Both the position numbers and the translations under genes were made by a program. Below the pieces are notes generated by a model that had not been told where the DNA came from, did no database searches, and saw nothing but the letters and a program-made list of their open reading frames with translations. 60,886 nt of DNA from NCBI RefSeq assembly GCF_003334385.1, contig NZ_QOWN01000028.1; one strand, 5' to 3'. Source of the DNA: Escherichia coli. GTDB lineage: Bacteria > Pseudomonadota > Gammaproteobacteria > Enterobacterales > Enterobacteriaceae. This document shows, in pieces, positions 5,807 to 8,113 of the stretch (position 1 is the first letter of the stretch; every line of letters starts with the position of its first letter).

Positions 5807-8113
5807 ATGTTTAAGGCCAGGAATTGCGGCTGGATACGTTTACTGCCCCTGTTTATGCTGAGTCTACCAGTACAGGCGGAACTTCGATGTGTTGCAAATG
5901 CAGTTGATATTGAATCATTTTTTTCTGCGGCTACCGCTGAAGATAAACAACAAGTTGAACAAGCTATCAACAGTAGCGTGAATCTTGTCCCCTTCGGTTT
6001 ATCTGCATCGAACTGGAAAGTGCATCGTGGCGATTTAGTGGTAGAAGGTAATATAGAGAGTAATCAAAAATTGATTGTTCTTGGGAATTTGACAGTCAAA
6101 GGTAATATTTCCACTTTCTCTCTTTCTAATCCATGGGTTATTCTCGGTAACGTGACGGCAACGAATATAGTTGCGGATTCACCACTGTTAATTACCGGTT
6201 CGATAAATGCAAGTGGACTGGTATTTATCGACTCATATTACGATAATCCGTCTACGATTAAGGGGAGTATTAATGCGCGTGGGATATTTATCAATGACAT
6301 AATTGCACCTGTTGTTGCGTCTTCGACAAATAGTGAATTCATGGTCCGTGCGAGTGACAAACATGACACTGAAAATGTCAAAAAAGCGCTGATGATAATA
6401 AATCCTGATGCATATTATTGGGGGCTAATTAATGATGAAGATGCTCTGAAAGAAATTTTTAAGCGAAGCAATATTCGCATGGCAGGGAATGTCTGTAATC
6501 AGATGAAAAAAGAAGCGCTGTTTCGCCCTAAGCCTTCTCCTGAGTTAGTGCAAGAATTGCAAATGCTGGATGAAGGCAAAGTTGCTGCATTTGAAGGACG
6601 AGACATTGCGACATTTGATCTTGCCGTAATGCGAACTCTCCCAAGGCTTAAAGGAATTTCAGCTAACCTACGCAAACAACTTATTAATAGCAATGATGAA
6701 CAAACGATTGAAAGTATGGCGAGATATATGCCTGACAATGAGATTCTGGAGTTGACCGATCAGCAATTGGGTTACCAGCCTGTTGTTCTGGGGTTGCTCG
6801 ACCGTGAACCGCTCTCTGTCGAAATAATGACGCGAATGAGTCGTCTACCTGATGGTGTCGGTCCGTTGAATCTTGCGCTACGTGAAAATCTCCCTCTGGA
6901 TATCGTCATGACTCTGGCGAAAAGAGATTGGGATATGATCATTCAGGAGCTTTATAAAGATGCGTGGTTATTGCCTGAATCCATTATTGATGGCTATATC
7001 CGCAGTGATGATTCCTCTATTCGTCAGGTCGGTGCTGGAGGACAACTCACCTACAATCAGGCAATGCAGTTGGCGAACGATTCATCAAACAATGTTGTCA
7101 CAAGCTTAGCGTTCAAGCTGGCAGAGATGAAACACCATGGTCAATTGTTGCGGATGACGCCACAAGAGAGTGACAAAGTTGCAGGCTATTTATACCAAAA
7201 ATTCGAGAATGACGATGATCTAATACGTGTGTTATTTTTAGCATTGCCAGATAACTTACAGTTTAATTTTGTTAAAAGGATGGAGAAAAAATCCCCGGCC
7301 TACTTTTGCTGTCGGGATATGCAGGTAATTCACTCTGACGCTGCTTTACAACGGTTATTGACACGTTTCAACGATCCTGAAGGGTGGAGTAATCTGGCGA
7401 AAAATCAGTATCTGAGCACGTCGATGAAACAAAAAATTTGGCAACGTGCTTTATCGCATCGGAAAAATAATCCGAAAGCAGATTCAGATGCATATGAAAC
7501 CAGCGCTGATATGATTTTGTCTGAGCTGATTAGCCACGGCGAAGTTGATGACCAGATGCTATTAAATGCCACCGCCCTGATACGTTCGGACGACTGGGAC
7601 TTTTTAGAGAGTGCATTAATTAGTTGGGATAATTTACCCGCTGTTGTTCTCAAGGAATTACAGCAAAACACGCCACGCAATGATATTTGGGCGAAGTTTT
7701 TTCTGAGGCAGGAAAACAGTTCCCGTGCGCAGGTTGACGAAGCGTTACGTGTTTATTATGCACTAGACCCCGATGCGTTAGCACAACTGGATGTACTGGC
7801 AAAACAACCGGATCGTATATGGTGGAGTACACTGGCGAAAAGCAATCTCACATTTTTCAAGTTCGGCGCACTTAACAACCGCCACACACCGCCTGCAGTA
7901 CTGGCGGCAGAAATTGATCCCGAGTGGTGGATTGTGGCGATGAATAATCCCCGTTTTCCAGTTGATGTATTAAAGGCGAGGCTGAAACGTGATCCTTTGC
8001 TGGCGTTAGAGCTTGTTAACCCTGAACTGGATTTAGTCCGCCAGCTGGCGCTTAACGGTAAGACGCGCGCAATACGGGAACAAGCGATGAGAAAACTTGA
8101 TGAGTTGTATTGA
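5807..8113 (+). CDS. ydbD: Large secreted protein of unknown function (YdbD)
   Basis: ORF track 5801..8113 starts at GTG; I prefer the ATG at 5807, which has a GGAG 6 nt upstream and gives 768 aa. N-terminal signal-peptide-like segment (..LLPLFMLSLPVQA/E). Confidence 0.8.
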   Translation: MFKARNCGWIRLLPLFMLSLPVQAELRCVANAVDIESFFSAATAEDKQQVEQAINSSVNLVPFGLSASNWKVHRGDLVVEGNIESNQKLIVLGNLTVKGNISTFSLSNPWVILGNVTATNIVADSPLLITGSINASGLVFIDSYYDNPSTIKGSINARGIFINDIIAPVVASSTNSEFMVRASDKHDTENVKKALMIINPDAYYWGLINDEDALKEIFKRSNIRMAGNVCNQMKKEALFRPKPSPELVQELQMLDEGKVAAFEGRDIATFDLAVMRTLPRLKGISANLRKQLINSNDEQTIESMARYMPDNEILELTDQQLGYQPVVLGLLDREPLSVEIMTRMSRLPDGVGPLNLALRENLPLDIVMTLAKRDWDMIIQELYKDAWLLPESIIDGYIRSDDSSIRQVGAGGQLTYNQAMQLANDSSNNVVTSLAFKLAEMKHHGQLLRMTPQESDKVAGYLYQKFENDDDLIRVLFLALPDNLQFNFVKRMEKKSPAYFCCRDMQVIHSDAALQRLLTRFNDPEGWSNLAKNQYLSTSMKQKIWQRALSHRKNNPKADSDAYETSADMILSELISHGEVDDQMLLNATALIRSDDWDFLESALISWDNLPAVVLKELQQNTPRNDIWAKFFLRQENSSRAQVDEALRVYYALDPDALAQLDVLAKQPDRIWWSTLAKSNLTFFKFGALNNRHTPPAVLAAEIDPEWWIVAMNNPRFPVDVLKARLKRDPLLALELVNPELDLVRQLALNGKTRAIREQAMRKLDELY

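Follow-up and report, generated by a model that had tools for sequence, protein, structure and literature searches.

What does ydbD do, and does it work together with the genes beside it? This large gene lies between pdxI and ynbABCD in a stretch of Escherichia coli DNA (RefSeq assembly GCF_003334385.1, contig NZ_QOWN01000028.1), whose full length of 60,886 nucleotides we call the window. It is an already known, annotated and uncharacterised E. coli y-gene and not a new system; positions 5700-8300 of the window are 100% identical to E. coli chromosomes, in which the same coding sequence is annotated ydbD, and its RefSeq product name is 'DUF2773 domain-containing bactofilin'. An earlier note on this DNA had described the product as a large secreted protein that may be functionally linked to its envelope-related neighbours. 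Our analysis suggests that YdbD is probably a Sec-exported protein of the cell envelope which acts as a stoichiometric binder or scaffold, with a constant beta-helix module and a partner-binding solenoid of the LRV type, independently of ynbABCD. We propose that it would leave the cytoplasm by the Sec pathway and act in the envelope without being an enzyme. The capped beta-helix would stay constant and act as a rigid stalk or as a platform for self-association, and the LRV/HEAT-like solenoid would vary, its groove perhaps binding, in a stoichiometric manner, a protein or an envelope polymer.

The reading frame is intact and runs on the + strand from ATG at 5807 to a stop codon whose last base is 8113 (768 codons), while the listing of open reading frames opens it two codons earlier, at GTG 5801. 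This reading of the frame and the complete match to RefSeq agree with the coordinates, the length of 768 aa, the gene name and the neighbours given in the earlier note. The features of the gene are as follows.

5807-8113, + strand: ydbD coding sequence, 768 aa; precursor 86.7 kDa, predicted mature protein 84.0 kDa with an isoelectric point (pI) of 5.15
5798-5801, + strand: ribosome-binding site GGAG, 5 nt before the ATG, kept in the E. coli and E. albertii alleles
5807-5878, + strand: predicted Sec-type signal peptide, aa 1-24, with a predicted cut after VQA24 (sequence features)
5879-6007, + strand: predicted N-terminal cap, aa 25-67, short strands and a helix at 44-53 (models, predicted local distance difference test score, pLDDT, 87-98)
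6008-6352, + strand: predicted right-handed beta-helix, aa 68-182, with the first-rung motif W70-x-x-H73-x-G75-D76-L77
6107-6277, + strand: polymorphic segment, aa 101-157 (57 aa), missing in frame from the 711-aa allele (alignment with P0013)
6353-6541, + strand: predicted helical linker, aa 183-245, in which F239-R240 of the family motif 'P-x-F-R' is nearly invariant; aa 207-223 are of low confidence
6542-8110, + strand: predicted alpha-solenoid of short paired helices (LRV/HEAT-like), aa 246-768 (model, Foldseek and Pfam matches of relatives)
7868-8110, + strand: Pfam DUF2773 (PF10971), aa 688-768 (E 2.3e-45, 153 bits, model positions 1-81 of 81)

Comparison of alleles and of complete genomes shows that ydbD is a real, selected and dispensable accessory gene under relaxed purifying selection. 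All four alleles compared (the window's own, a divergent one from E. coli and two from E. albertii) keep 768 intact codons, and the ratio of nonsynonymous to synonymous substitution rates (dN/dS) against the divergent alleles is 0.16-0.33, that of pdxI being five- to ten-fold lower (0.03-0.04). Of 5426 complete E. coli genomes, 3834 (71%) carry the gene in one place over at least 80% of its length, and interruptions by the insertion sequences IS1 and IS5 also occur. Its GC content is 43.4% against 49.4% for the window; GC falls abruptly at the start of ydbD and stays low through ynbB, ydbD, ynbA and ynbB forming one low-GC block. One E. albertii allele (P0008; L016, positions 7001-9307) has, over most segments of its first ~245 codons, a synonymous distance (dS) to the window of only 0-0.07, as has the E. 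coli allele of L014, and in its solenoid part dS to the window is 0.36-0.69. Mosaic alleles of this kind indicate putative recombination inside ydbD between lineages or species.

Export is predicted from the N-terminus, MFKARNCGWIRLLPLFMLSLPVQA followed by ELR, which on inspection shows the three parts of a Sec-type signal peptide: the basic residues K3, R5 and R11, the core LLPLFMLSL and then P-V-Q-A/E, with small residues at -3 and -1. With V-Q-A at -3 to -1, the N-terminus is shaped like a substrate of signal peptidase I; a lipobox was not seen in its sequence. Since the hydrophobic core is short and the signal peptide had been called by eye, we examined its conservation in support. It is kept in the divergent E. 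coli and E. albertii alleles, and a clear signal peptide is present in ~26 of the 40 aligned family sequences; the two closest relatives outside Escherichia, P0039 and P0041, have classic signal peptides once their starts are moved to an upstream in-frame ATG. Because most of the 40 aligned members carry signal peptides, export appears to be a trait of the YdbD family, though not a universal one. The signal peptide claimed in the earlier note is thus borne out, as a prediction, by the three-region N-terminus and by its conservation in orthologues and most relatives. At L002 (7960-8000) and L003 (7948-8000), the loci of these two closest relatives outside Escherichia, we noticed gene starts called too far downstream, which removes the signal peptides.

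The structure prediction and fold search that the earlier note had asked for pointed to a beta-helix plus a helical-repeat solenoid, with no match to an enzyme fold. The AlphaFold2 model, computed for the monomer from the alignment of an exhaustive homologue search, had a pLDDT of 86.8 and a predicted template-modelling score (pTM) of 0.76, with aa 1-25 disordered (pLDDT <50). Its boundaries place the cap at 30-67, the beta-helix at 70-181, the linker helices at 188-235 and the solenoid at 247-767. In the model the beta-helix is short, compact and right-handed, of the bactofilin/adhesin fold class, and the cap is conserved together with it as one module, a profile of aa 26-245 matching other proteins as a single unit. 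The conserved columns of the beta-helix module are mainly turn glycines, plus D76, with H73 common. A recurrent E. coli allele of 711 aa (162 collection blocks; loci L009 and L010) lacks aa 101-157, which we estimate at about three rungs of the beta-helix. The deletion is bordered by the similar 'KGN/I' and 'KGS/I', and slippage or recombination between rungs is suggested as its origin; the recurrence of this natural allele argues for a stalk- or spacer-like role of that part of the helix. We also considered whether the 711-aa alleles lack the signal peptide and rejected this, the deletion being internal and in frame.

The remaining ~520 aa were modelled as a solenoid in which over 35 short helices span aa 247-767 (pLDDT ~90), and DUF2773, as modelled, is its last 81 residues, that is, the final helices and no separate domain. 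Foldseek comparison with the PDB returned generic HEAT/ARM proteins only (PP2A-A, karyopherin-beta2, designed ARM proteins) at E ~3e-4 and low TM score, while against AFDB50 it found full-length look-alikes labelled 'HEAT repeat' or 'LRV domain-containing' from Tahibacter, Halopseudomonas and others (TM 0.58-0.77). With Pfam, YdbD matched DUF2773 and, below threshold, Bactofilin, and no enzyme family; NCBIfam, PADLOC and PHROGs gave nothing meaningful, only weak MinC, SpbR and 'choice-of-anchor' noise, and sequence searches of the PDB with full-length YdbD and with the N-module profile gave nothing relevant. The absence of obvious catalytic motifs remarked on in the earlier note is consistent with all of these searches, and among the conserved columns of the N-terminal module nothing resembled a catalytic constellation.

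The two modules recur in a much wider family. A word-indexed homologue search found almost only Escherichia sequences and fragments (at least 80% identity), and an exhaustive search of representatives was required to uncover the family; it gave 157 matches, including ~35 full-length proteins of 709-819 aa with 16-31% identity, the taxa seen being Pseudomonas, Halopseudomonas and Tahibacter. Across the family the solenoid follows the consensus 'LA-x-D-x4-VR-x2-LA-x4-LP'. Among 40 aligned relatives LRV_2 (PF25591) was recognised in nine and LRV (PF01816) in seven at E<=0.001, and in 16-17 at E<=0.1, and HEAT_2 (PF13646) also matches relatives; in E. coli YdbD itself the LRV and HEAT models of Pfam gave no match. 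As DUF2773 was recognised in 6 of 40 members only, that name under-describes the family. YdbD resembles LRV and HEAT-like proteins in its predicted solenoid of short paired helices, but differs from them in being exported, as predicted, and joined to a beta-helix module. The LRV protein of Azotobacter carries an Fe-S domain, which YdbD lacks. In other proteins the beta-helix module is fused to LRR, ankyrin or TPR repeats instead. The family expands locally and diverges fast: L012 (2518-12397) holds a tandem array of four full-length members that are 24-52% identical, and L006 (3581-8307) a tandem pair that is 48% identical, both arrays lying in metagenomic or Pseudomonas contigs.

Several points weigh against YdbD as an envelope binder or scaffold. 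We infer its localisation from sequence features that predict export, and the hydrophobic core LLPLFMLSL is short, with prolines in it. As called, some 6-10 relatives lack a signal peptide and look cytoplasmic; the module itself is therefore not confined to the periplasm. The binder or scaffold role would follow from the class of the predicted fold. At the first rung, where D76 is almost invariant and H73 is frequent, a small functional or metal-binding site is therefore possible. No binding partner is indicated by the gene neighbourhood of ydbD, and a scan upstream of the gene for a sigmaE promoter (GGAACTT-N15-17-TCAAA/TCTAA) found only a site with three mismatches, which is unconvincing.

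How ydbD is transcribed bears both on this proposal and on its relation to the neighbours. The gene order is pdxI (=ydbC)-ydbD-ynbA-ynbB-ynbC-ynbD-azoR-hrpA, and the flanking features are as follows.

4884-5744: pdxI/ydbC, pyridoxine 4-dehydrogenase, an aldo-keto reductase; neighbour of ydbD
5754-5789, + strand: terminator-like hairpin AAAAGGGAAA / TTTCCCTTTT with a T-tract, located after pdxI and reaching to 17 nt from the ydbD ATG
8114-8283, + strand: ydbD-ynbA intergenic region, 170 nt, 38% GC; the published ynbA promoter fragment
8284-8889, + strand: ynbA, CDP-alcohol phosphatidyltransferase family, first gene of ynbABCD; outside the ydbD unit

The hairpin after pdxI abuts the ribosome-binding site of ydbD, so that a conventional promoter for ydbD would not fit between the two genes. 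It stands at the same position in E. albertii L015 (6946-7000) with stem and loop bases altered. A scan for sigma70 promoters upstream of ydbD found none at a suitable position, and the lack of a promoter fits a published expression below one part per million (ppm). It is likely that ydbD would be expressed by read-through or by stress-induced transcription from behind the pdxI terminator. After ydbD we found no terminator-like site, so that read-through into ynbA is possible. An Rfam scan of 4600-9000 at E<=1 gave no RNA family.

The spacer that follows is where ynbA is controlled. Salscheider et al. (PMC3950696) cloned the region between ynbA and the upstream gene, mapped the start site, and located 65-68 bp upstream of it a BglJ-RcsB site that activates ynbA; their main text makes no mention of ydbD. 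The sequence TATTCTGA at 8192-8199, ~85-92 nt upstream of the ynbA ATG, matches the BglJ-RcsB core wwTTCykA, and as a candidate its position is compatible with the published site, while the core motif occurs 26 times in the window against 33 expected and is not significant alone. The earlier note had drawn attention to a 170-bp spacer with palindromes. Its length is as described and two perfect 8-nt inverted repeats are there (8147-8154/8175-8182 and 8267-8274/8278-8285, the second overlapping the ynbA start), but only one lies wholly within the spacer, and since one or more such repeats arise in 8% of mononucleotide shuffles, the palindromes are not clearly above chance and carry little weight.

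Published work has touched on ydbD several times. It was up 3.9-fold on sigmaE overexpression and was described as 'induced by methylglyoxal' (PMC2731931), is listed, as a gene of unknown function, among the targets of YciT by chromatin immunoprecipitation with exonuclease digestion (ChIP-exo; 10.1101/2021.06.10.447994), swept in lines of E. coli B under iron(III) selection (PMC12466345), and was both up-regulated and mutated, like ynbC, in a persister strain, where it was called 'possibly involved in detoxification of MG' (PMC13313352). In minimal glucose, insertions in either ydbD or ynbB lower fitness, with expression below 1 ppm and ~6 protein copies per cell, an effect left unexplained by its authors (Price et al., 10.1101/038851). 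An artefact of position or of silencing of the transposon marker may lie behind this effect. The other genes with a fitness effect and expression below 1 ppm (arpA, wcaE, yahL and ybfK; also yagM, yfdI and yfjI) are presumably low-GC and horizontally acquired too.

We then asked whether YdbD could be a partner of ynbABCD. These genes, of the CDP-alcohol phosphatidyltransferase, CDS-like, hydrolase/methyltransferase and PAP2/DSP phosphatase types, are in most E. coli adjacent to ydbD, on the same strand, low in GC and envelope-related like it, and YdbD might, for example, be a co-regulated periplasmic handler of the lipid products of these phospholipid-type enzymes. The same-strand adjacency without a terminator-like site after ydbD and the up-regulation and mutation of both ydbD and ynbC in the persistence strain (PMC13313352) speak for such a role, as do, circumstantially, the shared low-GC block and the flagging of YdbD and YnbB in the same transposon-sequencing (Tn-seq) fitness set (10.1101/038851). 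Against it, all four combinations of presence and absence occur: most E. coli have both; E. coli L007 has pdxI-ynbABCD without ydbD; L008 has pdxI-azoR with neither; and E. albertii L015 and L016 have pdxI-ydbD-azoR and no ynb gene, the ynb genes being absent downstream of ydbD also in L009. Of the 5426 complete E. coli genomes, 4284 contain at least 80% of ynbABCD, which exceeds by no fewer than 450 the number with a largely intact ydbD. Among eight distant homologues, in eight unrelated contexts, none (0/8) has a CDP-alcohol phosphatidyltransferase, CDS-like or PAP2 gene beside it, the one gene constantly next to ydbD in Escherichia is pdxI, and the start site and activator site of ynbA have been mapped within the spacer (PMC3950696). 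With gain and loss separate, the distant contexts unlinked and not conserved, and the ynbA promoter its own, the functional link suggested in the earlier note found no support, and ydbD appears to be a stand-alone gene outside the ynb lipid-enzyme operon. A partnership with the ynb enzymes is accordingly quite unlikely.

Other roles have been attached to YdbD or can be imagined for it. Some databases call YdbD a 'protein involved in detoxification of methylglyoxal', a label whose unconfirmed origin is reportedly an insertion-mutant screen for methylglyoxal sensitivity. A detoxification or resistance role, in agreement with these names and with the published remarks cited above (PMC2731931, PMC13313352), is nevertheless highly improbable, as Pfam, NCBIfam and the fold search gave no catalytic domain, be it of the glyoxalase, aldo-keto reductase, DJ-1 or another type, YdbD is predicted to lie outside the cytoplasm, the site of glutathione-dependent detoxification, and the insertion phenotype could be indirect, through an effect on the envelope, or polar. 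The RefSeq name raises a different possibility, since the YdbD beta-helix is, non-specifically, of similar size and kind to bactofilins (BacA of Caulobacter, PDB 2n3d; that of Thermus, PDB 6ria). The Bactofilin model (PF04519) matched YdbD at E 0.05 (14.3 bits, aa 78-138), which is not significant; its best match in 79 relatives was at E 0.008, and the N-module profile found no bactofilin chain in the PDB. Bactofilins are cytoplasmic and membrane-associated, whereas YdbD has a predicted Sec signal peptide and, in the model, a helix with an ordered cap beside it and a 520-aa solenoid joined to it. We therefore rejected membership of the bactofilin family, for which the sequence evidence fails and which the predicted export contradicts. 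One could still suppose an exported bactofilin-like polymer, in which the beta-helices stack end to end, like those of bactofilins, into a 'periskeletal' filament of the periplasm that carries the LRV solenoids; we regard this as very unlikely. The wider form of this idea, in which YdbD and its relatives would self-assemble outside the cytoplasm into a filament or patch and interchangeable LRV, LRR, Ank and TPR repeats would recruit envelope partners, is speculative and carries an equally small probability in our judgement. Tandem arrays of divergent paralogues (L006, L012) and the swapping of recognition repeats would suit a periplasmic decoy, inhibitor or immunity-type binder directed against incoming toxins or enzymes, or a surface or secreted adhesin. 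Such a role is unlikely: no toxin, type VI secretion (T6SS), contact-dependent inhibition (CDI) or secretion-system genes adjoin ydbD or its relatives in any of ten contexts, PADLOC and PHROGs gave no matches, and there is no outer-membrane translocator domain or partner. Adhesin-type beta-helix domains (the two-partner secretion (TPS) domains of FHA/HxuA, the autotransporter passengers Pet/Hbp, tapirins and 'putative adhesins' of Parabacteroides) are 7-19% identical to YdbD, which differs from them in lacking a TpsB partner or beta-barrel translocator and in its much shorter helix.

Some side observations concern the family and the surroundings of the gene. Some E. coli have a second family member of 759 aa that is 26% identical to YdbD, with fragments in Shigella dysenteriae (AFDB A0A2X5QEV0, Q32JE4 and A0A090NVN1). 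The type seen in L002 and L003 was considered as this paralogue and rejected, both being absent from complete E. coli genomes. Predicted proteins that join parts of YdbD to YnbB (PF01148) or YnbC (PF12146/PF12147) are also found (P0005, P0028, P0030, P0034 and P0035; AFDB A0A077ZK33 and A0A1X3J1I9); they may reflect strain deletions that joined ydbD to ynb genes, or artefacts of gene calling or assembly, and one entry is a contaminant in a Trichuris assembly. At 1-4676 of the window the frame of ydbA, a BigA-like autotransporter, is uninterrupted. In the K-12-type strain LIM, otherwise 99.98-100% identical, ydbA is split by IS2 and IS30 at positions matching ~1131 and ~1179; the window looks like K-12-like sequence without these insertions.

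Thus ydbD, one of the large y-genes of E. coli that still await an assigned function, now has a domain map of signal peptide, capped beta-helix and LRV-type solenoid, as predicted, which will be unsurprising to a specialist. The tempting inference that it belongs with ynbABCD is removed, and two of its database labels, 'bactofilin' and 'methylglyoxal detoxification', are called into question. The map opens on a wider and, by its predicted signal peptides, mostly exported family, missed by the usual searches, in which paralogues stand in tandem and modules are swapped. If members of this family should indeed self-assemble outside the cytoplasm, exported proteins of bactofilin fold would constitute a new class of 'periskeletal' scaffold.

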